18,898 nt of DNA from an uncultured bacterium (GTDB lineage Bacteria; Gemmatimonadota; Gemmatimonadetes; Gemmatimonadales; Gemmatimonadaceae): NCBI GenBank assembly GCA_963978095.1, contig CAXBQP010000053.1, positions 1-18,898 on the forward strand, in the 5' to 3' direction. Of the stretch, positions 882 to 17,599 are shown one piece after another. The position numbers and the translations under genes are program-made. Within the stretch, counting starts at the first letter, position 1; each line of letters begins with the position of its first letter. The notes beneath the pieces are model-generated. The model was not told the origin of the DNA. It was given only the letters and a program-made list of their open reading frames with translations, and searched no databases.

Positions 882-3800
882 ATGCAAACGCGCTTTAGCC
901 GCATTCTCGCAACAGCACTCCTCGTCCTCGGCGCCAGCACCGGTCTCGACGCCCAATCTCCCGCCGCAACCGTCGACTCCGCCCTGCTCAAAACGCTCCA
1001 GTGGCGCAACATCGGCCCCTTCCGCGGCGGACGTGCCGACGCGATCGCCGGCGTCACGGGACAACCGTATGTCTACTACGCCGGCTACACCGGCGGCGGA
1101 CTCTGGAAGACCGACGACGCGGGGCACAGCTGGAAGAACATTTCCGATGGCTTTTTCCGAACCAGCTCCGTGGGGGCCATCGGCGTCGCCGAGTCGGATC
1201 CGAATGTGATCTATGTCGGCATGGGGGAGCACGCGGTCCGCGGACAATCTTCCTCCTATGGCGACGGGGTCTACAAATCCACGGATGCCGGCAAGAGCTG
1301 GAAGCACATCGGCCTGGCCGCCACCAAGCAGATCTCCCAGGTCCGCGTCCACCCGCAGAACCCGGACCTGGTCTACGTGGCCGCCCAAGGGGACCGCTGG
1401 AAAGGCACCGCCGACCGCGGGATCTATCGCTCCACCGATGGCGGCAAGAGCTGGTCGCTGATCCTCAAGGGCGCCAACGCCTTCAGTGGCGCGAGTGACC
1501 TGTCGATGGATCCCAACAACCCGCGCATCCTCTACGCGGCCTTCTGGGATCACCAGCGTCTTCCCTGGCAGGTGCGCTCCGGCGGTGCCGGCAGCGGCAT
1601 CTGGAAGTCCACCGACGGCGGCGACAACTGGACGCGCCTCGCCAACGGACTCCCGAAGCTCATGGGCAAGATCGGGGTCGCCGTCTCCCCGGCCAACCCG
1701 GAGCGCGTGTTCGCCATCATCGAGGCCGACAAGAGCGGCCTGTACCGCTCCGACGACGCGGGCACCAGCTGGAAGCTCCTCTCGGAAGACCGCAATATCG
1801 TCACCCGCAGCTGGTACTACATGAACATCACCGCCGACCCGGCCAACGCCGACGTGGTGTATGTCATCAACGCGCCGATCATGAAGTCCATCGATGGAGG
1901 CAAGACCTTTGCCACCCTCCCGGCGCAGCACGGCGACAACCACTTCCTCTGGATCAATCCCAAGGACGCACGCTACATGGCGAACGCCAACGATGGCGGC
2001 GCCACCATCAGTCTCGACGGCGGCAAGAGCTGGAGCACCCAAGGCAATCAGCCCACGGCCCAGTTCTACCACGTGATCGTCGATGACGCCTACCCGTACC
2101 GCCTCTACAGCGGACAGCAGGACAACTCGTCGGTGATCATCAAGAGCCGATCCGACGAAGGCGCCATCACCGAGGCCGATTGGCAGAACGGACCGGGCTG
2201 CGAAAGCGCCAACATCGGCGTCGACCGCAAGAATCCGCGCTATGTCTACGGCGGCTGCTACCAAGGCATCCTCGACGAGCTCGACATGAGCTCGGGCCTC
2301 CGCCGCAACATCATGCCATGGCCGGAACTGAACCTCACCGAGCCGAGCAACGAGACCAAGTACCGCTTCAACTGGACCGCGCCGGCGCTCGTCTCACGCC
2401 ACGCGGGAAATGTGATTTATCACGGCGGCAATGTGCTCTTCCGCTCCCCGGATCGCGGCCGCACCTGGACACCGATCTCGCCGGACCTGACCCGCAACGA
2501 CAAGGCCACCCAAGGACTCGGCGGCACCCCGTTCACGAACGAAGGCGCCGGCGGTGAGGTGTACGGCGCTATCGTCACCATCGCCGAGTCGCCGCACGAT
2601 GCCAACACCCTCTACGTGGGAACCGACGACGGCCTCGTGCAGCTGACGCGCGACGGCGGCAAGAGCTGGACGAACGTCACCCCCGCCGGTCTCGCCGTCG
2701 GACTCGCGAACGAGCTGGAGGTCTCGCCGCACGATCCGGGCACGGTCTACCTCGCCTTCCGCCTCGATCGGCGCGGAGACTACACCCCCTATCCCATGAA
2801 GTCCACCGACTACGGCCGCACGTGGACGCGCATCAGTACCGGGATGCGCGACGGAGAACCGGTACGCGTCATCCGTGAGGATCCCGAGCGGAAAGGGCTC
2901 CTCTACGCGGGCACCGAAACCGGCGCGTACCTCTCCTTCGACGCGGGCGCCCACTGGCAACCGTTCTCGCAGAACCTGCCCAACGTTCCGGTCACCGGAC
3001 TCGACGTACGCCACGGCAATCTCTACGCCTCCACCGAAGGGCGCGCCTTCTGGGCGCTCGATGACCTGAGCGCCGTCCGCCAGCTGAACGCCGACGTCGC
3101 CAAGGCCGCCGTGCACCTCTTCACCCCGCGCGACGCGATGCTCGTGCCGGGCAGCCAGGGGCGCAACACCGGCGCGGGAACCAACCCGGCCCCGGGCGCC
3201 AACATCTACCTGTCGCTCGCGGCCGCGCCGGATTCAGCCAACCCCGCCACCCTCGAGTTCCTCGACGCGCGAGGCGTCGTGATCCGACGCTTCGGCAAGG
3301 GAGCGGTCGGCAAGGGGGTGGCCGCTCCTGCCCCACTCACGCTGAAGGCCGGGCTCAATGCCTTCCAGTGGGACCTGCGCAGTGAGGCGCCGGCCAAGCT
3401 CCCCGGCAATGTCAACATCTGGGGCGGCCCGGGCGCGGGCTATCTCGTGACGCCGGGGAGTTATCAGGTGCGACTCACGGTCGGCAGCACGGTGCAGACC
3501 CGGAGCTTCACGGTGGTGCAGGACCCGCGGATCTCCGCGACGGCCGCCGAGATCGCCGCGCGCGACGCCTTGGCCCGCGCCATCGTCGCCCGCGTCGACG
3601 AGATCCACGAATCGCTCCTGCGCCTCCGCGATGTGAAATCGCAGGTCGCGGGCTATGTCGAGAAGGCCAAGGACGTGCCCACCGGCAAGCAGATCGCGGA
3701 AAAGGGCAAGGGGATCACGACGGCCGTCGACTCGCTCGACCCGCGCCTCTCCACCAAGGCGGCCAACGGGCAGGACGTCATCAACTTCCGCAACGGCATC

Positions 3801-4016
3801 AACGCGCAGTACGCCTTCCTCCTGGGCAACCTCGAAGGGAACGAAGTCCTCACGCAGCCGGTGCGTGATCGGTTCGCCGAACTCGAGAAGCTCTGGGCGA
3901 CGATGCAGCAGCGCATCAGCGACGTCGAGACGAGACAGGTCGACGAGTTCAACGCGCTCCTGAAAGCGGCGCAGCTCAATGGCGTGATCGTCACGAAGCC
4001 CAAGGTCGCGATGTGA
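882..4016 (+). CDS. Secreted BNR/Asp-box repeat (VPS10/sortilin-like) beta-propeller protein, often annotated as glycosyl hydrolase
   Basis: 1044 aa with a Sec signal peptide (MQTRFSRILATALLVLGASTGLDA). N-terminal WRNIGPFRGGR motif and about 11 Asp-box repeats (e.g. WKTDDAGHSW, YKSTDAGKSW, YRSTDGGKSW, FRSPDRGRTW, YLSFDAGAHW). C-terminus looks like a beta-sandwich followed by a helical tail. Confidence 0.9.
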   Translation: MQTRFSRILATALLVLGASTGLDAQSPAATVDSALLKTLQWRNIGPFRGGRADAIAGVTGQPYVYYAGYTGGGLWKTDDAGHSWKNISDGFFRTSSVGAIGVAESDPNVIYVGMGEHAVRGQSSSYGDGVYKSTDAGKSWKHIGLAATKQISQVRVHPQNPDLVYVAAQGDRWKGTADRGIYRSTDGGKSWSLILKGANAFSGASDLSMDPNNPRILYAAFWDHQRLPWQVRSGGAGSGIWKSTDGGDNWTRLANGLPKLMGKIGVAVSPANPERVFAIIEADKSGLYRSDDAGTSWKLLSEDRNIVTRSWYYMNITADPANADVVYVINAPIMKSIDGGKTFATLPAQHGDNHFLWINPKDARYMANANDGGATISLDGGKSWSTQGNQPTAQFYHVIVDDAYPYRLYSGQQDNSSVIIKSRSDEGAITEADWQNGPGCESANIGVDRKNPRYVYGGCYQGILDELDMSSGLRRNIMPWPELNLTEPSNETKYRFNWTAPALVSRHAGNVIYHGGNVLFRSPDRGRTWTPISPDLTRNDKATQGLGGTPFTNEGAGGEVYGAIVTIAESPHDANTLYVGTDDGLVQLTRDGGKSWTNVTPAGLAVGLANELEVSPHDPGTVYLAFRLDRRGDYTPYPMKSTDYGRTWTRISTGMRDGEPVRVIREDPERKGLLYAGTETGAYLSFDAGAHWQPFSQNLPNVPVTGLDVRHGNLYASTEGRAFWALDDLSAVRQLNADVAKAAVHLFTPRDAMLVPGSQGRNTGAGTNPAPGANIYLSLAAAPDSANPATLEFLDARGVVIRRFGKGAVGKGVAAPAPLTLKAGLNAFQWDLRSEAPAKLPGNVNIWGGPGAGYLVTPGSYQVRLTVGSTVQTRSFTVVQDPRISATAAEIAARDALARAIVARVDEIHESLLRLRDVKSQVAGYVEKAKDVPTGKQIAEKGKGITTAVDSLDPRLSTKAANGQDVINFRNGINAQYAFLLGNLEGNEVLTQPVRDRFAELEKLWATMQQRISDVETRQVDEFNALLKAAQLNGVIVTKPKVAM

Positions 4017-5473
4017 GTCTCCCCCCTCGCGAGGACCGCGGTGTGCCGCGCGGCGGCGACGACCTCTGCGACGCCACCGCGGTCACCTTGGCGGCATGGA
4101 TCGCACGGGGGGAGCTCTCCGCACGCGAGGTCGTTGCGGCCCACCTCGCACGCATCGAGGCGGTGAACCCCTCGCTCAACGCGATTGTCACCCTCACCGG
4201 CGACCGCGCCATGGCCGACGCCGCCGCGGCCGACGAGCGTCAAGCCCGCGGCGAACCGCTTGGTCCGCTTCATGGTCTGCCGATCGCCCACAAGGATCTC
4301 GTCGACACCGCCGGGATCCGCACCACGTACGGGTCCCCGGCGTTCCGCGATCACGTGCCCGCCACCGACGCGCGACTCGTCCGCTCGCTTCGGGCCGCAG
4401 GCGCCATCACCCTCGGCAAGACCAACACCCCCGAGTTCGGCGCCGGCTCCAACACCTTCAATCCGGTCTTCGGCGCTACCGTCAATCCGTACGACCGGCG
4501 CAAGACGGTCGGCGGAAGCAGCGGGGGCGCAGCGGTCGCGCTCACCACCGGCATGCTCCCGATCGCCGATGGCAGCGACACGGGCGGCTCGCTCCGGAAT
4601 CCCGCCGCCTTCACCAATGTCGTCGGCCTCCGCCCGTCCCCGGGCCGCGTCAACGACGACCTGGGCTCCTGGTCGCCGCTCTCCACCAATGGCCCCATGG
4701 CGCGGACGGTCGCCGACACGGCGCTGCTGCTCAGCGCGATCGCCGGCCCCTGCGACGGCAACCCGCTGTCGCTCGACGACGATCCCGCCATCTTCCGTGC
4801 ACCACTCGAGCGCGACGTCCGCGGCCTCCGCATAGGCTGGTTCCGCGACCTGGGCGGGATCCCATTCGAACCGGAGATCCGGCGCGTGGTCGGTGAGGCC
4901 CGTGCCGTCTTCACCGCCCTCGGCTGCGTCATCGAAGAGGCCGAACCGGATTTCGTCGGCATCGACCTCGCCTTCGAGACGTTGCGCCACCTGTGGTTCC
5001 ACGCGAACCTCAAACCGCTGGCGCGCCGAAGCCCGGAACTCGTCAAGGACACCATTCACTGGGAGATCGCCGAAGCGGAGCGGCAATCCAGCGCCGACGT
5101 GGCGCGCGCCCTCGCCCGCCAGGCGCGATTCCACGGGCAGGTCCGTGCCTTCTTCTCGCGCTTCGATTTCTTCGTGCTTCCCGTGACGCAGGTCGTCCCC
5201 TTCGATCACGCGATCCCCTTCCCGACGGAGATCGCCGGCCAGGCCATGCACACCTACATCGACTGGATGCGCTCCTGCTGGTACGTCTCCATGATGGCCG
5301 CCCCCGCGATCTCCGTCCCCGCCGGCTTCACCCGCGACGGTCTCCCGGTGGGACTTCAGATCGTCGGTCGTCCGCGCGACGACCTGAGCGTCCTGCAGCT
5401 GTCCCATGCCTTCGAGCTCGCCGCCCCACACGGATCGCGCCGTCCCTCTCTCACGCCGAGTGCCGCACCATGA
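4013..5473 (+). CDS. Amidase (amidase signature family)
   Basis: GPLHGLPIAHKD (catalytic Lys), GKTNTPEFG, GGSSGG and GSDTGGSLRNPA (Ser-cisSer-Lys triad motifs), C-terminal GLPVGLQIVG. GTG start overlaps the upstream TGA (GTGA). No signal peptide. Confidence 0.93.
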   Translation: MSLPPREDRGVPRGGDDLCDATAVTLAAWIARGELSAREVVAAHLARIEAVNPSLNAIVTLTGDRAMADAAAADERQARGEPLGPLHGLPIAHKDLVDTAGIRTTYGSPAFRDHVPATDARLVRSLRAAGAITLGKTNTPEFGAGSNTFNPVFGATVNPYDRRKTVGGSSGGAAVALTTGMLPIADGSDTGGSLRNPAAFTNVVGLRPSPGRVNDDLGSWSPLSTNGPMARTVADTALLLSAIAGPCDGNPLSLDDDPAIFRAPLERDVRGLRIGWFRDLGGIPFEPEIRRVVGEARAVFTALGCVIEEAEPDFVGIDLAFETLRHLWFHANLKPLARRSPELVKDTIHWEIAEAERQSSADVARALARQARFHGQVRAFFSRFDFFVLPVTQVVPFDHAIPFPTEIAGQAMHTYIDWMRSCWYVSMMAAPAISVPAGFTRDGLPVGLQIVGRPRDDLSVLQLSHAFELAAPHGSRRPSLTPSAAP

Positions 5474-6894
5474 CCGACTCGCACATGCCCCGCCGCGACT
5501 TCCTCGCCGCCTCCGGCACCGCCCTCGGCGCCGCGTTCGGCGCGATGCTCCCGCGCGGCGGGCGCCACGGCGACCGCTTCACCGGATTCCCCGAGTGGAC
5601 GACGAGCATCGGCGGCCCGTCCGCCACCGCCGCCGACCGCATGGCATGGTGGCGCGAGGCGCGCTTCGGGATGTTCATCCACTTCGGCCTCTACTCCGTG
5701 CTCGGCGGCGAGTGGGGGGGCAAGACGAACTACGGCGAGTGGATCCGCAACAACGCCAAAATCCCGATCGATGAGTACGAGAGGATGCTCGGCCGCTTCA
5801 ATCCCGTCGAGTTCAACGCGAACCGGATCGCGAAGATGGCCGCCGACGCCGGCATGAAGTACCTCGTGATCACCACCAAGCATCACGACGGCTTCTGCCT
5901 CTGGCCCACGAAACAGACCGAGTGGTGCGTGCGCAACACGCCGTACCGGAAGGACATCATGAGGGCCGTGGCTGACGCCTGTCGCGCCCACGGCGTGAAG
6001 CCCTGTTGGTACCACTCGATCATGGATTGGCATCATCCCGACTACCTCCCGCGACGTGACTGGGAGAAAGGGATGCGCCCGGAGAACGGCGCGCGGTTCG
6101 ATCGGTTCGTGACGTATCTGCACGCCGAGGTCGAAGAGCTCATGACGCAGTACGGCGAGATGGGCGTGATGTGGTTCGACGGCGAGTGGGAGAGCACCTG
6201 GTCGCAAGAGTTGGGCGCGGCGCTGCTCGAGCATTGCCACACACTGTCGCCGAATACGCTGGTGAACAGCCGCGTGTCCAAGCAGCCCGCCAACGGGCTC
6301 GAGGCCAAGCTCTCCAAGCCGGCGCTCGGCGATTTCGGCACCCCTGAACAGAAGATTCCCGATCGTGGCCTCCCCGGCGTGGACTGGGAAAGCTGCATCA
6401 CCATGAACCAGAACTGGGGCTACAACAAGGCTGACAAGGACTTCAAGCCGTTGCCCAAGCTGGTGGAGCTGCTGATCGAGACGTCGTCCAAGGGGGGCAA
6501 CCTGCTGCTGAACATCGGGCCCACGGGGACCGGCGCCGTGCCGACCGAAAGCGTGGACCGTCTCGCCGGATTGCACGCGTGGATGAAGGTCCACGGCGAG
6601 GCGATCCATGGCACGGAGGCCTCGCCGTTCGAGGGAGCCCCGTTCCGCGCGACGCGGAAGGGAAAACGGCTCAACGTCTTCCTCCCCGAGTGGCCGACGA
6701 GTCGGGAGCTCCTGCTCCCGGGCGTCAGCGCGGCCCCCACGCGCGTCCGACTGCTCGGGAACTCGGCGGCGGGATCACTCCCGTCGCGGGGTACGGACCG
6801 TGGGCTGGTGGTCACCCTTCCGGACGCTCGAGCGAACGCGGTATGCAGCGTGCTGGCGCTCGACATGCCCGCGCCAGTCCCCGCCGCCTATTGA
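5470..6894 (+). CDS. Alpha-L-fucosidase (GH29) with Tat signal peptide
   Basis: Motifs WWREARFGMFIHFGLYS, TTKHHDGFCLW, YHSIMDWHHPDY, MWFDGEW (nucleophile Asp), WESCITMNQNWGY and GGNLLLNIGP. Start placed at ATG 5470 (ATGA overlap with the amidase stop), giving the twin-arginine leader MTDSHMPRRDFLAASGTALGAAFG; 474 aa. Confidence 0.93.
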   Translation: MTDSHMPRRDFLAASGTALGAAFGAMLPRGGRHGDRFTGFPEWTTSIGGPSATAADRMAWWREARFGMFIHFGLYSVLGGEWGGKTNYGEWIRNNAKIPIDEYERMLGRFNPVEFNANRIAKMAADAGMKYLVITTKHHDGFCLWPTKQTEWCVRNTPYRKDIMRAVADACRAHGVKPCWYHSIMDWHHPDYLPRRDWEKGMRPENGARFDRFVTYLHAEVEELMTQYGEMGVMWFDGEWESTWSQELGAALLEHCHTLSPNTLVNSRVSKQPANGLEAKLSKPALGDFGTPEQKIPDRGLPGVDWESCITMNQNWGYNKADKDFKPLPKLVELLIETSSKGGNLLLNIGPTGTGAVPTESVDRLAGLHAWMKVHGEAIHGTEASPFEGAPFRATRKGKRLNVFLPEWPTSRELLLPGVSAAPTRVRLLGNSAAGSLPSRGTDRGLVVTLPDARANAVCSVLALDMPAPVPAAY

Positions 6895-7003
6895 GGCGCA
6901 AGCTGTACAGATTTTGTAATGGATAATTTCTGGACGTGCGCTCGTTGTACTCTGGCAATTGCGCACTGCAATATTAGGTTACAAAGTTGTAAGGAGAACC
7001 TCG
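6895..7003 (+). promoter_or_regulatory. AT-rich promoter/operator region of the signalling operon, with palindromic sites
   Basis: Sharp drop in GC. Inverted repeat TTACAA-AG-TTGTAA (6979-6992), related TACA-GATTT-TGTA (6906-6918), half-site TTGTAC (6945-6950), and SD-like AAGGAG (6991-6996). Confidence 0.55.
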
Positions 7004-7039
7004 ATGCGCTGCCCCCCCCGACTCGTTGAGGAACCATGA
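7004..7039 (+). other. Putative 11-aa leader peptide/uORF (MRCPPRLVEEP)
   Basis: AAGGAG lies 7 nt upstream of ATG 7004. The stop TGA (7037-7039) overlaps the ATG at 7036 of the next gene (ATGA). Contains a C8 tract (7012-7019). Confidence 0.35.
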
Positions 7040-7647
7040 ATCCAGCTACGACCGCCCTCGTCTTGATCGGTTATCAGAACGATCAGTTCGCCACGAATGC
7101 CATTCTCCGCTCGGCAATCGACGACGCGTCGCGTACGGATTCCGTCCTGGAGCGCACGTTGCACTTCGTCAGTCACGTCACCGAAACACCGATGACGGTG
7201 ATCGTGCCGCCCACGGAGTTGACGCAGCGTTTCGTGTCCGCCACCAACGCCAACGGGATTCTCTGGAAACTCCGCGAGAGCGGTGCGTTGCTTCCGGGCT
7301 CCAAGGGCGCCGAACCCATTCCAGAGCTGTTGGCCTATGGCGAGCGCTTGGTCACGATCCGGGGCAAGTCCGGGTTCAACGCGTTCCGGAACACGGACAT
7401 GGAGCGTGAACTGGGCACCCGCGGCATCCGCGACGTGCTGATCGCCGGCGCGATTACGTCCTTGTGCGTGGACTCCACGGCCCGCACGGCGTACGAACTG
7501 GGTTACAACGTCACGATGCTCACGGACTGCGTCCTCTCGGGCACCGCCGCGGAGCACGACCTGTACTGCGGGCGCATGTTCCCGCTCTACGCGCGCACGG
7601 TGGACAGCCGCACCCTGCTTCGCGAGTTCCAAGGCGTCGCCGCGTGA
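7036..7647 (+). CDS. Isochorismatase-fold (cysteine hydrolase family) protein 1, catalytic Asp replaced by Gly
   Basis: TALVLIGYQNDQF (family consensus about ALLVIDxQNDF), GKSGFNAF, GIRDVLIAGAITSLCVDSTARTAYELGYNVTMLTDC; 203 aa. Confidence 0.9.
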   Translation: MNPATTALVLIGYQNDQFATNAILRSAIDDASRTDSVLERTLHFVSHVTETPMTVIVPPTELTQRFVSATNANGILWKLRESGALLPGSKGAEPIPELLAYGERLVTIRGKSGFNAFRNTDMERELGTRGIRDVLIAGAITSLCVDSTARTAYELGYNVTMLTDCVLSGTAAEHDLYCGRMFPLYARTVDSRTLLREFQGVAA

Positions 7648-7684
7648 ACCGTACCGTCGGCACTCCCTGCGCCGGTCGCCCGTG

Positions 7685-8299
7685 ATGGATCCACGCTCCG
7701 TCGCGCTCCTGTTGGTGGGGTTCCAGAACGACAAGTTCTCGGAGGACTCACCGATTCGCGGGTTTGTGGAGGAGCAACACCAGCTCGACGGGTCGCTCGC
7801 CCACACGGTGCGCTTCGTGCAGGCGATCGCCGATTTGCCGACGTTGATCATCACGACGCCCATCGAGTTCGAAGGCGATGACGCGACGCGGACGCGGCGC
7901 CCGGCGGTGCTCACCGCGATCCGCGACATGGGGCTCCTCAAGAGCTGCTCCGTGGGCGCCGAGACCATTCCGCAGCTGGCCGCGCTCGGCGATCGCATCA
8001 TCACCATCCGCAATCGGTCCGGCTTCAACGCCTTCGCGCAGACGAGTCTCGAGGACACCCTGCGGTCGCACGGCGTCCGTCACGTGCTGATCGCCGGGAG
8101 TTTCACCTCCATGTGCGTCGATTCGTCCGGCCGCGCCGCGTTCGACCTGGGATTCGACGTCACCATCCTCACGGATTGCATCGTGGGGCGGACCAAGTTC
8201 GAAGACGAGTTCTACTGCTCCTCGATCTTCCCGCTGTACGCCAACACGGCGACCAGTAGTCAGATGCTCGAGCAGCTGCGGGGGAGCGGTGCCGACTGA
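7685..8299 (+). CDS. Isochorismatase-fold protein 2, catalytic Asp->Gly and Lys->Arg
   Basis: VALLLVGFQNDKF, NRSGFNAF, GVRHVLIAGSFTSMCVDSSGRAAFDLGFDVTILTDC. From ATG 7685 it aligns without gaps to protein 1. GTG 7682 is an alternative start. Confidence 0.9.
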   Translation: MDPRSVALLLVGFQNDKFSEDSPIRGFVEEQHQLDGSLAHTVRFVQAIADLPTLIITTPIEFEGDDATRTRRPAVLTAIRDMGLLKSCSVGAETIPQLAALGDRIITIRNRSGFNAFAQTSLEDTLRSHGVRHVLIAGSFTSMCVDSSGRAAFDLGFDVTILTDCIVGRTKFEDEFYCSSIFPLYANTATSSQMLEQLRGSGAD

Positions 8300-10763
8300 A
8301 GAGACCGCCTCGCTCGGCGGCAGTCGAGCGCAGCGGTCGCTCGCGGACATTCACGTCGAGGCCACGTCACGGCTCGTGGACGCGTTGGCGGAGTCCGAGA
8401 ATCGCCTGCGCCGGTGCGTGGAGTTCCTCTCCCAGGTCGTCTTCGAGCTGGACGAGGACGGCATTTTGGTCTTCATCAGCCCAGCATGGTTGCGCGTCAT
8501 GGGGGAGGATCCCATGCGTTGCCTGCGTCTCCCGCTGCGTCAGTTCGTGCGCGAGGAGTACCGCCAGACGCTCGACGGGTTTCTGGCCGACCGGACCCGG
8601 CTGCGGCACTCCTTCGAGGCGCATCCGGCCCGATGGGAAACGAGTTGGGCGAAGTTCTCGCTCGCGCGCGTGCCGGAAGGAGGATTCGTCGGCGCCATCG
8701 AGGACCTGACCGCGCAACAGCGGGCGCGAAGCGAGATCGAGATGTTGTCGCTGGTCGCCAGTGCGACCGACAACATGGTGATCATCACCGATGCCCAGGG
8801 GGCCACGACCTGGGTCAACGACGCGTTCACCCGCCGGACGGCGTATACAATCGACGACATGGAGGGACGGACGCCGGGGAGTGTCCTCCAACGCGCCGGT
8901 TCGGAACGTCACGTCGCCGAGTCGTTGGGGCGCGCCGTGCGCGAACAACGCTCCGCCCACGCCGAGATCCTCAACTTCACCAAGAGCGGCGCCCCATACT
9001 GGGTCCAGCTGCAGATCAGCCCGGTCCACGATGCGACCGGTCAGGTGACCCGTTTCGTCTCGATCCAGTCGGAGACCACGGAACGACGCGCGGCGGACGA
9101 GGCTTTGCGTGCGCGCTCCGCCTCGCTCGAGGAACGCGTCTCGGAACGCACCGCGGAGTTGATTGCGGCACGGCGGCGTGCCGAATCCGCGACCAACGCC
9201 AAGAGCGTGTTCCTGGCGAACATGAGCCACGAGATCCGGACGCCGCTCAACGCGATCATCGGACTCTCGAGCCTCTGCCTCACCACCGACCTCGACGAAC
9301 GGCAGCGGGATTACCTCACCAAGGTCGACCGCTCGGCGCAGCACGTCTTGCGCGTGGTCAGTGAGATCCTGGACATGTCGAAGATCGAATCCGGGACCCT
9401 CGCGCTCGATCGCGTCGACTTCTCCATCCGGACGGTGTTGGAGCAGACGGAGGCCATCATGCTCCACTTGGCGCAGAGCCAGGGGATCGCGCTTTCCGTG
9501 ACCTGTGAATCCGACGTGCCAGAGCACGTGGTCGGCGATCCGGTGCGCGTACAGCAAGTCCTGTTGAATCTCCTGAGCAACGCGGTGAAGTTCACGTCGC
9601 GCGGCTCGGTCGACCTCAGCGTGTCCGTCGTGGAGCGCGAGGGTGCCCACGTGGTACTGCGCTTCAGCGTCTCCGACACGGGGATCGGCTTCCCGCCGGA
9701 GATGGCCGAACGATTGTTCGAACCGTTCGCCCAGTTGGACAACTCCTCCACGCGCGAGGTGGGAGGCACGGGGCTCGGCCTTTCGATCAGCAAGCGCCTG
9801 GTATCGCTCATGGGCGGCGAGTTCCGCGTGAAGAGCACGCCGGGACTCGGAAGCACCTTCTCCTTCACGGCATCGCTTCCGGTGAGCTCCGCGCAGGACC
9901 TCGTCCGCACCGTTGCCGCGCAGCGGGAGCAGGCGGATCGGGGCCGAGCCCGCGCCCGCGGCGCGGCCATTCTGGTCGCCGAGGACAACGAGCTCAACCA
10001 GCAGGTCGCGCGCGAGCTGCTCGAGTCGGTCGGCGCGACGGTCTCCATCGCGGAAGATGGACTCGAGGTTCTCCGACTCCTGGACGAGGGCAAGACGTTC
10101 GATCTGATCCTGATGGATGTACAGATGCCGCGCCTCGACGGCATGGAAACGACCCGTCGCATCAGGGAACGGGGAGAAGGCGCGTCCATCCCGATCATCG
10201 CGACCACTGCCAACGCGACGCCGGAAGAACGGCAACGGTGCCGGGTCATCGGGATGAACGACTTCGTTTCGAAGCCGGTGATGCCGGACCAGCTGTTCCA
10301 GACCCTCAGCCGCTGGCTGAGCACCTCGAGCGCGGTTCCGCCGGCGCCGGCCAGCCACGGCGCCTCCACGTCGGAACCGGCGGTCCTGGATTTCAAGACC
10401 CGGGAGATTCGCATGCCGAATCTCGACCTCTCCGCCCTCGAGAAGATGGTCGCCGGCGATCCGGCGAAGCTGTCGCGCCTCCTCGGCATCTTCGTCAGCA
10501 CGACGCAGAAGACCTTGGCCGAGATGGAGGCGTGCATCGCGGGTGAGCAGTTGCCGACCCTCGCTCGGCTCGCGCATCGGTTGCGCTCCGCCGCCGCGAC
10601 GGTGGGCGCCCATCGTATCGCGCGGCAGTGCGAAGCCCTCGAATCGTCCACCACCGAAGCGGACGCGGCCGACCGGGCGGCGCGGCGCGTGCAGGAGATC
10701 CAGGCGTTGTTCGCCGAGGTGCAGCAGGAGTTGGCAGAGCGCAGCGGGCTCCCGCAGCGGTGA
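8289..10763 (+). CDS. Cytoplasmic unorthodox hybrid histidine kinase (PAS-PAS-HisKA-HATPase_c-REC-HPt)
   Basis: PAS1 ([18 protein letters not shown]) and PAS2/PAC ([18 protein letters not shown]...[18 protein letters not shown]). H-box [19 protein letters not shown]-box [11 protein letters not shown]1 DTGIG, F-box LFEPF, G2 GGTGLGL. REC with VAEDN, LMDVQMP and SKP; HPt [14 protein letters not shown]. No transmembrane segment is evident. Overlaps the upstream gene by 11 nt. Confidence 0.95.
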
Positions 10764-10773
10764 GGTCCAGAGC

Positions 10774-12000
10774 ATGAGTGCGTCCCCGGTCGCCCCGCTG
10801 CGTGTCCTCGCCGTCGACGACGACATCTTCCTGCTCGAGATCGTCAAGGAGATGCTGGAGGTGTGCGGCGTGACCGACTGCCACACGGCATCCGACGGTC
10901 AAGAGGCCTTGCAGCATCTGGACGCATCCGGGGTCCATCCGGACATCATCCTCTGCGACATCGACATGTTCGGCATGGACGGGATCGAGTTCACCCGACA
11001 CCTCGCCACCCGCGCGTACACCGGCGGCTTCGCCATCATGTCCGGTTCGTCGCAACGGATGCTCCGGACGGTCGGCGCGCTGATCGAAGAGCGGAACCTG
11101 CGGTTCCTGGGCTCGATGGAGAAACCGTTGACCGTGGAAGCGCTGCGGGCGATCCTGCAACGCGTGCAGACGTCGCCGGTGGCATCCGCCCCCGCGACAC
11201 CGGCCAGTCCCGAGTTCCCGTCCCTCACCCCGGACGAGATCCGCGCCGGCATCGCGGCCGGCTACATGCGGCTGTATTATCAGCCGAAGATCCACCTCGA
11301 CACGCTCAAGGTGGTGGGGGTCGAAGCCCTGCTCCGGTGGTACGATCCCGAGCGGGGGGTCATCCCGCCGTTGAGCGTGATTCCGGTGGCCGAAGAGCAC
11401 GGCATGATCACCGAGATCACCTTCGCCGTCTTCCGGTTGGCCGCCGAGCAGCAGGCGGCGTGGCAGAAAGCGGGGATCGACCTGGTCGTGGCCGTGAACA
11501 TCTCGGCCGACGATCTCCTGCGGTACGACCTTCCGGATCGCCTGCGCGAGATCGTGGATCAGGTCGGGGCGAACACGAGCCGCCTGACGCTGGAGGTCAC
11601 GGAAGGACGCCTCATGACGAACATGGCATCGGGGATGGAGGTCATCTCGCGGCTGCGCCTCATGGGATTCAACTTCTCCGTCGACGACTTCGGCACCGGG
11701 TACTCGAACCAGGAGAAGCTCCGGAAACTGCCCTTCGACGAGATCAAGATCGACCGGTCGTTCGTCACCGACGCGGTGCAGAATCCGACACTCTGCGCGA
11801 TCGTCGAGTCCAACATCAGCCTCGCCCACGCGCTCGGCATGAGTGTCGTCGCCGAGGGCGCGGAGAGCGAGGCCGACTGCGCCCTGCTGCGGTCCCTCGC
11901 CTGCGACGAGGTCCAAGGATTCTACTTCTGCCGCCCCGTGCCGAATGAGCAGGTGATCGCGTGGAAGAACGAGTGGGAATCCACCCGCGTGCGCGACTGA
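10774..12000 (+). CDS. Response regulator with EAL domain (REC-EAL c-di-GMP phosphodiesterase, RocR/PvrR-like architecture)
   Basis: Start ATG 10774 after GAGG (10762-10765); 408 aa. REC motifs VLAVDDD, ILCDIDMFGMDG, IMSG, EKP. EAL motifs YQPK, GVEALLRW, VNIS, LEVTE, DDFGTGYS, IKIDRSFV, VAEGAE, QGFYF. Confidence 0.95.
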   Translation: MSASPVAPLRVLAVDDDIFLLEIVKEMLEVCGVTDCHTASDGQEALQHLDASGVHPDIILCDIDMFGMDGIEFTRHLATRAYTGGFAIMSGSSQRMLRTVGALIEERNLRFLGSMEKPLTVEALRAILQRVQTSPVASAPATPASPEFPSLTPDEIRAGIAAGYMRLYYQPKIHLDTLKVVGVEALLRWYDPERGVIPPLSVIPVAEEHGMITEITFAVFRLAAEQQAAWQKAGIDLVVAVNISADDLLRYDLPDRLREIVDQVGANTSRLTLEVTEGRLMTNMASGMEVISRLRLMGFNFSVDDFGTGYSNQEKLRKLPFDEIKIDRSFVTDAVQNPTLCAIVESNISLAHALGMSVVAEGAESEADCALLRSLACDEVQGFYFCRPVPNEQVIAWKNEWESTRVRD

Positions 12001-12003
12001 CGC

Positions 12004-13254
12004 TCAGCTCGCCAGCGTCCGGAGCGCCCGCACGAAAGTGTCGAGCTCGGCGGTCGAAGTGTACACCTGCGGGGTCACGCGCACGCCGTGCACGCCGGCC
12101 CCATCGATCGCGACCGTCCACACCTTGAACCGCTCCAGCAGGGTCTTGGCCAGCTCACCCGGCGCCATTCCCTGGATGCCGACGTTGGCGATCGCGCAGG
12201 AGCGTGCCGGATCCGACGGCGTATTGAGCACGACGCGGGGCAGCCCACGGACCTTGTCGCTCCAATAGCGCTGCAGGTACCGCAGACGGGCCTCCTTGCG
12301 CGCCACGCCGATCGCCTCATGGAACACGATGGCGTTCTCGATGCCGAGGTCGGTGTGCGGCGGATGGGTCCCGGTGTGGTTCAACTTCATGATGTCATCC
12401 TGCTTGGGCCCTTCATCACCGTAGATCGGCCAGAGGCGGCCGATCTTGTCCCGTTTCACATAGAGGATGCCGGCGCCGATCGGCGTCGACAGCCATTTGT
12501 GCAGGCTCGCGCCATAGTAATCGCAATGCAGATCGGGAATCCTGAAATCGAGCTGCGCGAACGCGTGCGCGCCATCGACCATGACGTCCACGCCGCGGGC
12601 ATGCGCCATGTCGCAGATCGCCCGCACCGGCAGGATGTGCCCCGTGATGTTCACCATGTGCGGGATCATCAGCAGTCGGGTGCGCGGCGTGATCGCCCGC
12701 GCGTATGTCTGCACCACGACATCGTCCGACGCCGGATCCATCGGGATGTCCACGAACACGTTCACCATCCCGTGCCGCTTGGCCTGGAGCTTGAACATGT
12801 CGATCATGGCGCCGTAATCCTGATTGGCCATGATCGCCTCGTCCCCGGGCTTCCAGTCGTAGCCGTTGATCACCGTATCCAGCGACTCGGTGGTGTTGCG
12901 CGTGATGATCAACTCCTCCGGTCCGCAGCCGGCGATCCCCGCGAGCTTGGTGCGCACGCGGAGCTTGTCGGTATCCTTGACGGTGCGCATGTAATGCGAT
13001 GCCTCGAGATTGATCGCGCGGACGTGGCGGATGAATCCTTCCAGGACCTCCTCGGGCTGGAAGCAGAAGAATCCGTTCTCGAGGTTGATGTACTCCGGGG
13101 TCAGCTTGAACTTGGACCGGATCCCGGCCCAGAACGGCTCGTCCTCGGCGAGTGCGCGCACCGGCATCGCGGCATAGCGCTGCAGCAGTTCGGGGGTGAA
13201 CAGCATCCCCATCGTCGCACCGCCCATCGTCCGCAGGAACTCTCGCTTGTCCAT
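12004..13254 (-). CDS. Aminotransferase class V-fold PLP enzyme (isopenicillin N epimerase/PvdN-like) with Tat-like leader
   Basis: YINLENG, ITRNTTE, HMVNITG, VDGAHAFAQ, SLHKWL (PLP lysine) and GVRVTP. N-terminus MDKREFLRTMGG. SD GGAGG upstream. Confidence 0.9.
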   Translation of the reverse strand: MDKREFLRTMGGATMGMLFTPELLQRYAAMPVRALAEDEPFWAGIRSKFKLTPEYINLENGFFCFQPEEVLEGFIRHVRAINLEASHYMRTVKDTDKLRVRTKLAGIAGCGPEELIITRNTTESLDTVINGYDWKPGDEAIMANQDYGAMIDMFKLQAKRHGMVNVFVDIPMDPASDDVVVQTYARAITPRTRLLMIPHMVNITGHILPVRAICDMAHARGVDVMVDGAHAFAQLDFRIPDLHCDYYGASLHKWLSTPIGAGILYVKRDKIGRLWPIYGDEGPKQDDIMKLNHTGTHPPHTDLGIENAIVFHEAIGVARKEARLRYLQRYWSDKVRGLPRVVLNTPSDPARSCAIANVGIQGMAPGELAKTLLERFKVWTVAIDGAGVHGVRVTPQVYTSTAELDTFVRALRTLAS

Positions 13255-13295
13255 CGCGCCCTCCGTCGGGTCGACCTGCGTGATTGCCGGACCGC

Positions 13296-16200
13296 TCAGA
13301 CCGTGACCGCCGATACCGGTTCGTCCACCGCCAGCGCCGCGCGCCGGCCGCGGCGCACCAGGTCATCGAAGTATGTGTAGATCACCGGCGTGACGTACAG
13401 CGTGATCAACTGGGAGAAGGCCAACCCGCCGACGACCGCGATCCCGAGTGGCCGACGCGATTCCGCCCCCGCGCCCGCGCCCAGGGCGATCGGCAGCGTT
13501 CCAACGAGCGCCGCCATCGTGGTCATCGTGATCGGCCGGAACCGGACCAGACAGGCCTCGTAGATCGCGTCGAAGGGCGTCTTGCCGTGCTTCTCGGCGT
13601 CGACCGCGAAATCGATCATCATGATCGCGTTCTTCTTGACCAGCCCCACCAGCATGATGATGCCCACCCACGCGTACACGGTGAGCTCCGTCCGCGTGAG
13701 CAGCAGCGCCAGCAACGCCCCAAAGGCGGCGAAGGGGATCCCGGAGAGGATCGTGAGCGGATGGATGAAGCTCTCGTAGAGGACGCCCAGCACGATGTAG
13801 ATCACGAAGATCGCGATCACGAACAGCGCGAGCAGACCCTTCTGCGTGTCCTGGAACACCTGGGCGGCCCCATAGAAGCCGGTCGAGATCCCCTCCGGCA
13901 ACACCGCCTTCACCTCCTTCTCGATCTCGTCGGTCGCCTGCCCCAGGGCGTATCCCGGCTTGAGGTTGAACGAGATCGTCACGCTGGGCTGCTGGGACGT
14001 GTGGTTCACCAGCATCGGCCCCACATTGCGCTCCACCCGCGTGACGGAGGACAATGGCACGAGCTTCCCCGTCTTGCCCCGCACATACAGCAGGTCGAGG
14101 GCGCTCAGATCGCGCTGGAACTCCGGCAGCAGCTCCATCACGACCCAGTACTCGTTGTTGGCCGTGTAGATCGTCGAGACCTGGCGCGAGCCGTAGGCGT
14201 TGTACAGCGCCGTCTCGATCTGCTCGGGCGTCACCCCGTACAACGCGGCCCGGTCACGGTCGAGCTGCAACGCCGCCTGCGGATTGGCGATCTGGAGATC
14301 GGTCGTGATGTCGACCGTCGACTTCAGCGTCTTGAACTTGGCCTCGGCAGCCTGCGCCGCGGTGTACAGCGTGGCCAGGTCCGGCGACGTGAGCGTGTAC
14401 TGGTAGCTGCCTTTCGACGTCCTTCCCCCGAGGTTGATGACCGGCTCATTGCGCAGATATACCGCGATGCCTGGCACGACCCGCAGCTTCTTCGACAGGA
14501 TCGGGATGAGTTCGTCCGCCGTCAGCTTGCGCTGTTCACGCGGGCGCAGCCGCAGCGTGAACCGTCCCTGATTGGCGGTCGACGCGCCACCGCCCTGCGA
14601 GGTCCCGACGTTCGAGATCAGCGCCTCGATGTTCTCGGTGTCGGCGAGCGCGATCGCCACGACACGCTTCTGATGCGCCACCATGTCCGTGAAGCTCGTG
14701 CCCTGCGCCGTCTCGGTGGAGACGGAGAGCCGGTTCTGGTCCTCGGAGGGGAAGAACCCCTTCGGGATGATCTGATACGCGACGCCGGTCAGGACCAGCG
14801 CCAACGCGGACGCGACGAGCGCGACGGGACGATGCGCCATCACCCATTCGAGCGTACGCCCGTAGAACCGTGCCGTCCCCTGGTACAGCCGCTCGAAACC
14901 ATCGAGGATGACGTTGCGTCGGCCGTGGAGCCCCTCGGCGGTAAGGAAGCGGCTCGCCAACATCGGCGTCAGCGAGAGCGACACGAACCCCGACACGAGG
15001 ATCGCCACCGCGATCGTGACGGCGAACTCGCGGAACAGCCGCCCCACGATCCCGCTCATGAACAGCAGCGGGATGAACACCGCCACGAGGGAGAGCGTCA
15101 TCGAGAGGATCGTGAAGCCGATCTCGGCCGCCCCCTCAAGGGCGGCCTGCATCGGCGGCTTCCCCATCTCCATGTGGCGCACGATGTTCTCGAGCATCAC
15201 GATGGCATCGTCGACGACAAATCCGACCGCGAGCGTGAGCGCCATCAACGACAAATTGTCGAGACTGAAGGCGAGCGCGTACATCACCGCGAACGTGCCC
15301 ACGAGCGACATCGGTAACGCCAGCGACGGGATCACCGTGGCCGAGACGTTGCGCAGGAACAGGAAGATCACCATCACGACCAACGCGATCGTGAGCATCA
15401 GCGTGACCTTCACGTCGTGCACGGACTCGCGGATCCCCTGGGACCGGTCGTAGAACAGGGTGAACTCGATCGCGGCCGGAATCTGGGCACGCAGCGACGG
15501 GAGCATGGCCTGGATGGCGTCGGCCACCTCCACCGTGTTGGTGCCGGGCTGCTTCTGCACGCCGAGCGAGATGGCGCGCGTGTCCTTGTACCAACCGGCG
15601 ATCTTGTCGTTCTGGACGCCGTCCACCACCTGGCCGAGATCCTTGAGCCGCACCGGCGCGCCATTGCGGTACGCCGCGATCACCTCCCCGAACTGCGCGG
15701 CGTTCACCAGTTGTCCGTTCGCGTTCACCGTGTAGGCCTTGTTGGCCCCCCACAGCACACCGGTCGGCAAATTGACGTTCTGCTGTGCCACGGCCGATGC
15801 GACTTCATCGATGCCGATGCCGCGGCTCGCCAGCTTGCGGGGATCGAGCTGGACACGCGCGGCGTACTTCTGCGTACCCAACACCTGCACCTGCGCGACG
15901 CCGCTGATGGTCGACAACCGCTGGGCGATGCTCGTCTGGATGTATTCATCCAGCTGCGAGAGCGGCATGGTCTTGGACCGGAAGCTCAGATACAGGATCG
16001 GCTGATCGGCCGGATTCGACTTGTTCATCGACGGTGGCACGATGCCCGGCGGCAGTTCGCGCAACGTCTTGCTGATGGACGACTGGACGTCCTGCGCCGC
16101 CGCGTCGATGTTCCGGTCCAACGAGAACTGCAGCGTGATCGTCGTGCTGCCGAGCGAACTCGTGGACGTCATGTTGTCGACGCCCGCGATGGTCGTGAAC

Positions 16201-16409
16201 TGCTTTTCGAGTGGGGTGGCCACCGCGCTGGCCATGGTCTCGGGACTCGCCCCGGGCAACGCCGCCGTGACGGTGATCGTGGGATAGTCGACCACCGGCA
16301 GATCGCTGACCGCGAGCTTCTGGTAGGAGAGCGTGCCGAACACCAGGAACGCGAGCATGACCAAGCTGGTCATGACCGGCCGACGGATGAACAGCGCCGT
16401 GATGTTCAT
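13296..16409 (-). CDS. RND efflux permease (HAE1, MdtB/MdtC-like)
   Basis: 1037 aa. FIRRPVMT, PGASPETMASAVATPLE, GFVVDDAIVMLEN (TM4 Asp pair), GLVKKNAIMMIDF (TM10 Lys), RFRPITMTT, LYVTPVIY. Confidence 0.96.
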   Translation of the reverse strand: MNITALFIRRPVMTSLVMLAFLVFGTLSYQKLAVSDLPVVDYPTITVTAALPGASPETMASAVATPLEKQFTTIAGVDNMTSTSSLGSTTITLQFSLDRNIDAAAQDVQSSISKTLRELPPGIVPPSMNKSNPADQPILYLSFRSKTMPLSQLDEYIQTSIAQRLSTISGVAQVQVLGTQKYAARVQLDPRKLASRGIGIDEVASAVAQQNVNLPTGVLWGANKAYTVNANGQLVNAAQFGEVIAAYRNGAPVRLKDLGQVVDGVQNDKIAGWYKDTRAISLGVQKQPGTNTVEVADAIQAMLPSLRAQIPAAIEFTLFYDRSQGIRESVHDVKVTLMLTIALVVMVIFLFLRNVSATVIPSLALPMSLVGTFAVMYALAFSLDNLSLMALTLAVGFVVDDAIVMLENIVRHMEMGKPPMQAALEGAAEIGFTILSMTLSLVAVFIPLLFMSGIVGRLFREFAVTIAVAILVSGFVSLSLTPMLASRFLTAEGLHGRRNVILDGFERLYQGTARFYGRTLEWVMAHRPVALVASALALVLTGVAYQIIPKGFFPSEDQNRLSVSTETAQGTSFTDMVAHQKRVVAIALADTENIEALISNVGTSQGGGASTANQGRFTLRLRPREQRKLTADELIPILSKKLRVVPGIAVYLRNEPVINLGGRTSKGSYQYTLTSPDLATLYTAAQAAEAKFKTLKSTVDITTDLQIANPQAALQLDRDRAALYGVTPEQIETALYNAYGSRQVSTIYTANNEYWVVMELLPEFQRDLSALDLLYVRGKTGKLVPLSSVTRVERNVGPMLVNHTSQQPSVTISFNLKPGYALGQATDEIEKEVKAVLPEGISTGFYGAAQVFQDTQKGLLALFVIAIFVIYIVLGVLYESFIHPLTILSGIPFAAFGALLALLLTRTELTVYAWVGIIMLVGLVKKNAIMMIDFAVDAEKHGKTPFDAIYEACLVRFRPITMTTMAALVGTLPIALGAGAGAESRRPLGIAVVGGLAFSQLITLYVTPVIYTYFDDLVRRGRRAALAVDEPVSAVTV

Positions 16410-17599
16410 CGCGGGTTCCGACCTCCCGTCCCCGCCCCCGGCCGGTCGCCCGCCCCGCCCGCCGCACCGGGTCCCTTCCCGTTGTTCCCGGGCGTCTTGA
16501 TGTCGACGGTCGCCCCGACGGTCAGGCGCGACTGGCCGTCGACCACCACCCGCTCACCGGCGCTGAGCCCGGAGGCAATCACCGATTTGTCCCCCACGGT
16601 GCGCGCGACCTTCACGGGACGCAACTGCGCCTTGCCCGCGTCGTCCAGCACCCACACGAAGAGCCCCTCCTGCCCGGTCTGGACCGCGACGGAGGGAACC
16701 AGCACCGCCCCCGTCTGCACGTACACGTCGAGCGTCACCGGCATGAACTGCCCGGGCCACAGGCGGTTGTCGTCGTTTGGAAAGCGGGCTTTGAGCGTGA
16801 CCGTCCCGGTCGTGGTATCGACGCCGTTGTCGACGAAGCTCAGCGCGCCGACCGCGGGCGCGCCGTCATGCGCGGGCCGCGCGGTTGCCCGCAGCGTGCC
16901 GCCGGATCTCGAGTACTGCTGGACCGTCTGCAGTTCCTTCTCGGGCACGGCGAATCGCACGAGAATCGGATGGATCTGATTGATCTGGACCAAGGGCACG
17001 GTCGCATTCGGCCGGACGAGATTCCCTTGGCGCACGAGCAACGCCCCGGTCTTGCCGGCGACGGGCGCACGAATCGTCGCGTTGTCGAGATTGAACTGCG
17101 CGGTCGCGACGGTCGCCTTGTCGGCGTCCACCACGGCCTTGAGCGCCGTGGCATTTGCCATCGCCTGATCGGCCTGCGAGCGGGTCACGAAATCGCGCTG
17201 GGCGAGCGCCGCGTACCGGTCCGCGTCGCGCTGGGCGTTGGCAAACTGCGCCTGGTCGCGCGCGAGCACGGCCTGGGCCTGCTGCAGCGCCGCACGGTAG
17301 GGCACCGGATCGATCTCGAACAACACCTGTTGCGCCTGCACTTCGTCCCCTTCCTTGAACTTCACGGCGGTCAACACGCCGCCGACCTGCGACTGCACCG
17401 CCACCGACTGGAGCGGCTCGACGATGCCGTTGGCGGTCACCTGATACGGCGCATCACCGGTCTCGACCACGGCGATCGTGACGGGCACGGTCGCCTTGCC
17501 GGGCGCCGCGGCCTTGGCGCATCCGGCCACCAGCAACAACGTGAGCGCGGGGCGCCGAAGGAGACCAGCAGAGACGGCACGCATGGAAATCGAGTTCAT
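16406..17599 (-). CDS. RND efflux periplasmic adaptor (MFP, MdtA-like), probable lipoprotein
   Basis: Lipoyl/barrel motifs VQSQVGGVLTAVKFKEGDEV, IRAPVAGKTG, DNGVDTTTGTV and LWPGQF, plus an alpha-hairpin. Start placed at ATG 17599 (ATGA overlap with the OMF stop). Lipobox-like LVAGC. Its stop overlaps the permease ATG. Confidence 0.93.
   Translation of the reverse strand: MNSISMRAVSAGLLRRPALTLLLVAGCAKAAAPGKATVPVTIAVVETGDAPYQVTANGIVEPLQSVAVQSQVGGVLTAVKFKEGDEVQAQQVLFEIDPVPYRAALQQAQAVLARDQAQFANAQRDADRYAALAQRDFVTRSQADQAMANATALKAVVDADKATVATAQFNLDNATIRAPVAGKTGALLVRQGNLVRPNATVPLVQINQIHPILVRFAVPEKELQTVQQYSRSGGTLRATARPAHDGAPAVGALSFVDNGVDTTTGTVTLKARFPNDDNRLWPGQFMPVTLDVYVQTGAVLVPSVAVQTGQEGLFVWVLDDAGKAQLRPVKVARTVGDKSVIASGLSAGERVVVDGQSRLTVGATVDIKTPGNNGKGPGAAGGAGDRPGAGTGGRNPR

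Follow-up and report, generated by a model that had tools for sequence, protein, structure and literature searches.

What does a soluble histidine kinase respond to when it is encoded beside two small proteins with the fold of an enzyme? To our knowledge, the input of most soluble kinases has not been identified. The question is raised here by a stretch of 18,898 nucleotides from an uncultured bacterium of the family Gemmatimonadaceae (contig CAXBQP010000053.1 of assembly GCA_963978095.1; the whole stretch is called the window), in which four genes encode two isochorismatase-fold proteins (ISO1 and ISO2), an unorthodox histidine kinase, and a response regulator with receiver (REC) and EAL domains. 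The answer proposed is that ISO proteins of the kind found here, in which glycine replaces the catalytic aspartate (Gly-type), serve as accessory cytoplasmic sensors in the manner of H-NOX and NosP, and control a partner protein through its N-terminal helix, probably by means of a pocket with a reactive cysteine; the probability of this reading is put at about 0.7. Genomic context lends strong support to a candidate input family that is new and has a partner helix of its own. The strongest evidence lies in the conserved helix and in natural fusions, both of which were overlooked in the preliminary description of this locus.

The four genes run in one direction on the forward strand and are closely packed, with a 37-nucleotide gap, an 11-nucleotide overlap, and a 10-nucleotide gap between them. 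ISO1 (7036..7647, 203 residues; the candidate accessory sensor) and ISO2 (7685..8299, 204 residues; a lineage-specific paralog) are 41% identical, and PF00857 is the sole Pfam match in either (108 and 95 bits, respectively). The AlphaFold model of ISO1 (pLDDT 91.7) is nearest to 3KL2 (TM-score 0.86, Z 27.7), an uncharacterised protein from Streptomyces in which Glu takes the place of the catalytic acid; the family match and the fold together place the proteins in the isochorismatase-like fold. As active cysteine amidohydrolases they fall short at the catalytic Asp, which is Gly12 in both, and they retain the nucleophile Cys144; position 111 is Lys in ISO1 and Arg in ISO2. ISO1 thus lacks Asp alone among the triad residues. 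None of the NCBIfam models for BiuH, RutB, YcaC, PncA, and PRK11440 reached its cut-off (best score 55.6 bits, cut-off 195), and the ESM Atlas returned generic isochorismatase clusters only.

The kinase (8289..10763, 824 residues, GTG start) has the order helix-PAS1-PAS2-HisKA-HATPase-REC-HPt, with Pfam matches to PAS, HisKA, HATPase_c, REC, and Hpt and an AlphaFold model backing the first PAS domain; His314, the N, G1, F, and G2 boxes, Asp610, Lys662, and His763 are all present. The REC-EAL protein (10774..12000, 408 residues) is a predicted phosphodiesterase of cyclic diguanylate (c-di-GMP): Pfam EAL scores 221 bits, the best NCBIfam model is PvrR (297 bits, below its cut-off of 580), and Asp62, Lys117, the EAL Glu184, Asn242, Glu274, DDFGTGYS at 304, Lys325, Glu361, and Gln381 are in place. 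No 19-residue segment of the four proteins exceeds a hydrophobicity of 1.44, so that none has a membrane segment. The gene order and spacing, the two isochorismatase folds with a broken triad, the membrane-less PAS-PAS hybrid kinase, and the regulator with its complete motifs are all as first described.

Relatives of the two ISO proteins were collected by homologue searches, and their loci by a genome scan (one genome per species; 543 stretches, of which the best 80, L001-L080, were analysed) and by a metagenome scan seeded by a Colwellia-named member (at least 523 stretches, the best 80 again being analysed). The best 80 genome loci span seven phyla, namely Gemmatimonadota, Pseudomonadota, Acidobacteriota, Verrucomicrobiota, Actinomycetota, Cyanobacteriota, and Armatimonadota, and the proteins of the 543 stretches, where named, are annotated as generic hydrolases only. 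The position of the catalytic Asp is Gly in 125 of 126 non-redundant clade members, whereas 26 of the 28 more distant sequences used for comparison retain an acid there; in a quick tree the split between the groups has an SH-aLRT of 98, and the Gly-substituted proteins do form a distinct clade, as had been supposed. The rest of the active site is kept: the Cys in 124 of the 126, Lys111 in 111 and Arg in a further 11 (Lys or Arg in 122), and also Thr141 of the oxyanion-hole region. Residues specific to the clade are Tyr17, Phe18, Asn115, Ser142, Asp146, Arg169, Cys178, and Tyr185, several of which sit in the C-terminal helix region. In enzymes of the family, each subunit has its pocket completed by the C-terminal helix of its neighbour (PMC7948467, PMC5806882).

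What ties this clade to signalling is a motif of about 20 residues at the start of the downstream gene, approximately D/E-L-H/Q-x-Q/E-A/I-T/Q-Y-R-L-x-E-x-L, which matches no Pfam family. It lies directly downstream of ISO at 79 of 80 genome loci, the remaining one ending at a contig edge, and at 68 of 80 metagenome loci, three of the others having no room for it. In the window it corresponds to about residues 20-42 of the kinase (8346..8414), a diverged copy proposed as a docking and transducing element, and the AlphaFold model gives a single continuous helix from residue 14 to 46 that runs into PAS1. One helix Glu is near-invariant (84 of 86) and is Asp in the window. A protein search with the helix only gave four close matches, and in the host genome (37,618 six-frame segments) no match but the window helix exceeds 6 bits. 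Since the main profile was trained on the loci that it scored, a profile was also trained on the metagenome set alone; it gave at least 10 bits in 58 of 79 genome-set partners, against a background maximum of 6.8 bits in the same 37,618 segments.

The helix also follows the clade in its absences. At 18 control loci with Glu-type proteins it never occurs, and no kinase lies within about 1.5 kb in any; the neighbours include one divergent PAS gene and are otherwise varied and mostly metabolic. Among 251 genomes of one verrucomicrobial order, the ISO gene is present in two, and intact helices were found in those two and not in the 249 genomes without ISO; a further 20 matches, all weak, came from generic linkers without the first half of the motif. 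Adjacency to genes for PAS kinases or GGDEF/EAL proteins across phyla had been named as an outcome that would favour the idea, and the neighbourhood survey bears it out: rather than occurring mostly in metabolic contexts, the clade almost always adjoins, or is fused to, signalling proteins. A complex prediction with two copies of ISO2 and two of kinase residues 13-52 (86-row alignments) returned no call on binding (score 0.00, uncertain partner fold), and in a covariation analysis of ISO and helix (effective number about 40) the top pairs mirrored the two-clade split and gap columns. In two loci a helix-bearing kinase lies on the opposite strand, a few kb from the ISO gene (L132:5659-7173, and L124:9619-11916, where it is the second such kinase); one ISO may control two kinases in L124.

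Fusions place both elements in one chain. Five proteins of 732-744 residues have the order ISO-helix-PAS-HisKA-HATPase-REC, one partial protein is ISO-helix-PAS, and a seventh has the order ISO-GGDEF-EAL-REC, its helix match being weak (9.2 bits); one fusion protein comes from a Cellvibrionaceae genome. Separate partners include HisKA kinases, HisKA_2 kinases, and PAS-GGDEF-EAL proteins, and in 14 bare helix-plus-kinase partners, mostly of one sub-clade, the His box follows 29-43 residues past the helix with no PAS domain between (confirmed by Pfam for L111). The 129 helix-bearing partners of more than 250 residues contain no 19-residue segment with a hydrophobicity of 2.0 or more. At L151:2813-4366, a Ser/Thr protein kinase stands downstream of ISO, with the helix internal and near the C-terminus (residue 468 of the open frame). 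These fusions, varied partners, and bare helix-kinases indicate that the conserved unit is one Gly-type ISO plus the helix, and that the output is exchangeable. The breakdown of c-di-GMP, which had been thought to define the system, appears as one output among several, since just 16 of the 80 genome loci have a co-directional REC-EAL gene following, and other loci of the family end in plain kinases, HisKA_2 kinases, GGDEF-EAL proteins, or the Ser/Thr kinase. The helix-PAS-GGDEF-EAL partner at L126:885-3902 ends in a hemerythrin domain, a hint of an oxygen or redox theme. In the Colwellia-like sub-clade, genes for pilus secretin and TPR proteins lie downstream of the cassette (L099:7241-9217, L085:10503-11459), which suggests control of attachment. 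The REC-EAL gene of the close relative L002 (13508-14965) is split into two open reading frames by a frameshift or an assembly error.

The mechanism favoured here would begin with cysteine amidohydrolases, from which the Gly-type sensors would have been derived by loss of the Asp. As the Cys, the Lys, and the fold were kept, a small molecule is most likely bound, or reacted with, without turnover. A change in the Cys144-Lys111 pocket would alter the grip of ISO on the N-terminal helix of the partner, and the helix would relay this change through a coiled coil to the output; because it runs into the coiled coil, it could switch any module that follows, whether PAS-kinase, bare kinase, or GGDEF-EAL. 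The clade-specific residues of the C-terminal region could offer a route from pocket to surface. In the window, phosphate would pass along His314, Asp610, and His763 to Asp62 of the REC-EAL protein and thereby govern the breakdown of c-di-GMP, and ISO1 and ISO2, whose pockets have each diverged from that of the family, might combine in a mixed oligomer or respond to different ligands. The sequences themselves show the clade, its residues, its linkage to signalling genes, the fusions, and the helix; the physical binding of ISO to the helix, the loss of catalysis, the direction of control, and the phosphotransfer are inferred.

With regard to the ligand, the missing Asp would also release an amide's leaving group, so that adducts formed independently of an acid fit at least as well as a trapped amide; a reversible adduct on Cys144 (with an aldehyde, an oxidant, or sulfane sulfur) is favoured over amide acylation at about even odds. 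A bolder extension is that of a portable two-part input, in which the Cys of a pseudo-amidohydrolase covalently traps a reactive small molecule and the helix can be acquired by any kinase or cyclic-dinucleotide enzyme, across at least seven phyla and including one possibly eukaryotic protein with a TIR-like region; this is put forward only tentatively. Two eukaryotic-looking proteins were seen, and the gene models of both may be faulty: P0139, with a Gly-type domain, a weak helix match (8.9 bits), and TIR matches below the cut-off, and P0086, with two tandem Gly-type domains. A conserved metabolic neighbour that might name the ligand was sought and the idea rejected, as no such neighbour is shared clade-wide and most recurring clusters were opposite-strand shadows. 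A related cluster of open reading frames lies near L133, L134, L146, L148, L158, and L160, the two copies scanned (L148, L158) being carbamoyltransferase-methyltransferase fusions of about 1300 residues; it is a possible hint of a carbamoyl ligand in that sub-clade.

How far loss of the Asp means loss of catalysis can be judged from characterised enzymes of the family. In BiuH, no substitution of Asp36 is tolerated, this residue acting as general base and general acid, and a Lys-to-Arg change lowers activity about 25-fold (PMC5806882); in TrtA, the Asp is proposed to activate the hydrolytic water and the Lys to lower the pKa of the Cys (PMC7948467). On the other hand, the D13A variant of MhIHL retains a tenth of its activity, so that loss of the Asp need not abolish catalysis (PMC5353710). 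Taken together, these data make it likely but not certain that hydrolytic turnover has been lost in the Gly-type proteins, in which a reactive Cys should remain; the Cys of YcaC carries propionamide or persulfide adducts (PMC4519933). The MhIHL result, the conservation of Cys144, Lys111, and Thr141, the near-invariant helix Glu, and the carbamoyltransferase genes near six loci would all suit Gly-type proteins that are still active hydrolases, assisted by the substrate or taking an acid from another residue or from the partner helix, with the kinase reading turnover or occupancy as of a trigger enzyme. Such a role is considered unlikely in view of the nearly uniform Gly beside a sister clade that keeps its acid, the intolerance of BiuH to any change of the Asp, and the lack of a metabolic neighbour recurring across the clade. 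In the isochorismatase fold, moreover, the Asp position is buried at the end of a strand, and supply of the acid by a separate helix is thus improbable.

A different doubt concerns where sensing takes place. By alignment, PAS2 of the kinase resembles LOV domains without the photoactive Cys, the motif for which is found in none of 79 genome-set partners, and this likeness suggests that PAS2 may be a second input, possibly flavin-based. The preliminary description had taken the lack of a periplasmic sensor in the kinase as a ground for supposing that the ISO proteins may be receptors that regulate it; the kinase does lack a membrane segment and a periplasmic domain, but given a LOV-like PAS2 the argument is weak for the window. 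ISO could then be a subunit that binds no ligand and clamps the helix in a structural or inhibitory role, with sensing left to the PAS domains or to changes in the abundance of ISO, and the window copies, which are under purifying selection yet lack the pocket aromatics Tyr17, Tyr66, and Phe85, would agree with this. The 14 partners without any PAS domain would not, and a scaffold would have no need of the conserved Cys144 and Lys/Arg111, so that a mere clamp seems quite improbable. It is very improbable indeed that the genes simply travel together as a mobile cassette whose products do not interact: the patchy distribution (2 of 201 host-family genomes, 2 of 251 of the verrucomicrobial order, none of 20 close relatives) would be expected of one, but the same helix precedes unrelated outputs, natural fusions occur, and the helix was not found in the 249 genomes lacking ISO.

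Against the sensor reading itself stand several points, the MhIHL activity among them. All the evidence is genomic, and PAS2 could be the real sensor of the kinase. The loci were selected for their similarity to two seeds, and many of them are related to one another. Nine of the 80 metagenome loci have room downstream of ISO and no helix there; in three of these (L108, L132, L151) the motif occurs in another nearby protein, L148 has a PAS kinase whose start has diverged, and L136 and L154 have no signalling gene in the DNA examined. The 18 Glu-type controls comprise 17 from one actinobacterial order and one cyanobacterial, and both helix-positive verrucomicrobial genomes belonged to the profile training set, so that only the negative side of that comparison is independent. 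Finally, the window locus is an atypical member of the family: its helix scores 1.4 bits with the independently trained profile, and each ISO copy lacks 10-12 of 58 conserved positions, where the family median is one lost.

The pairing of the ISO proteins, which had been taken as a defining feature, is not supported as one. Two copies occur in 3 of 80 genome loci (L001, L002, L024), and ISO1 and ISO2 cluster with orthologs from L001 and L002 (SH-aLRT 87), away from the doublets of L024 and L158; the tree thus points to a lineage-specific local duplication. ISO2 retains the clade-specific C-terminal Arg169, Thr170, Phe176, and Cys178, and ISO1 lacks Arg169 and Phe176. The ratio of non-synonymous to synonymous substitution is 0.04-0.14 for ISO1 (strong purifying selection) and 0.26-0.43 for ISO2 (relaxed but purifying). 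That the copies had lost complementary residues, as halves of a half-dead heterodimer, was considered and found unsupported: they share four losses (Tyr17, Gly22, Tyr66, Phe85) where 2.1 would be expected. Within the host family the cassette occurs in 2 of 201 genomes, and a DNA search did not find it in 20 close relatives, in many of which the flanking genes do have matches; it therefore appears to be accessory in this family. A plasmid search at 1e-30 gave no match, and a search for RNA runs listed none. Many of the loci L001-L080 appear to come from metagenome-assembled genomes of freshwater lakes or ponds, which may be a habitat signal or only an effect of the seed. The arrangement of the genes, recurring as it does across phyla, is far beyond chance.

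Upstream of ISO1 lies an intergenic region (6895..7035, forward strand) with 44-50% GC against 66.6% genome-wide. It is AT-rich as first described and is likely the promoter of the cassette, but no sigma-70-like site was found in it. A perfect inverted repeat (6979-6992; 6+2+6 bp), 43 nucleotides before the ISO1 start and partly retained in L001 and L002, is a possible regulator site. An upstream motif or riboswitch shared by the family was rejected: an Rfam search of the window gave no match, and among 155 upstream regions no palindrome or 8-mer was common beyond one clade. The flanks hold ordinary genes, encoding a BNR/Vps10-repeat protein, an amidase, and an alpha-L-fucosidase on one side (882-6894), and a class V aminotransferase and an RND efflux set on the other (12004-18843); genes of the RND type are also found in the neighbourhood of L001, L002, and several further loci. 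At the contig edge (3-692) is the C-terminal part of a low-GC (about 56%) open reading frame without a Pfam match.

If the proposal holds, the family is a candidate set of sensors whose helix is recognisable and predicts the partners, and the bare helix-plus-kinase versions are a minimal two-protein system for ligand finding. Were the covalent Cys chemistry also true, this would clearly exemplify an enzyme active site that has become a receptor, and the helix could be used as a modular input in engineered signalling. A literature search that covered few subscription papers, and the available text of those retrieved, gave no description of an isochorismatase-fold input, of the partner helix, or of inactive family members. 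Among the closest known systems are H-NOX and NosP, small soluble proteins encoded beside a kinase or a c-di-GMP enzyme; VpsS, for example, has no sensory domain and is regulated by the co-cistronic NosP (PMC6769237). The ISO gene is likewise a soluble accessory beside such partners, but unlike these heme sensors of nitric oxide its product has an isochorismatase fold and its own partner helix, and neither ISO1 nor ISO2 has a Pfam match to the heme-binding HNOB or FIST domains. In P0228, a Glu-type isochorismatase domain shares its chain with FIST N and C domains, which make up the sensor fold of NosP. With BiuH, TrtA, MhIHL, and YcaC, the ISO proteins share the fold (the nearest structure, 3KL2, being Glu-type), the nucleophile Cys, and the Lys; they differ from these cysteine hydrolases in the clade-wide Gly and in the clade-specific residues, and from the Glu-type proteins in their link to signalling genes. 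Pseudomonas RocS1/RocR pairs an unorthodox kinase (PAS, REC, HPt) with a REC-EAL phosphodiesterase, RocS having periplasmic SBP_bac_3 sensors (PMC12051241). As in that pair and in PvrR, the HisKA-HATPase-REC-HPt kinase of the window stands beside a REC-EAL protein with intact motifs; unlike RocS, it is soluble, has the new N-terminal helix, and has no SBP_bac_3 domain or membrane segment, and the regulator falls below the PvrR cut-off. Comparable in principle is the regulatory hydrogenase HupUV/HoxBC, a sensor derived from an enzyme, which binds the soluble PAS kinase HupT/HoxJ at its N-terminal part, although the hydrogenase fold is unrelated to that of ISO and the hydrogenase has a metal cofactor and a known ligand.

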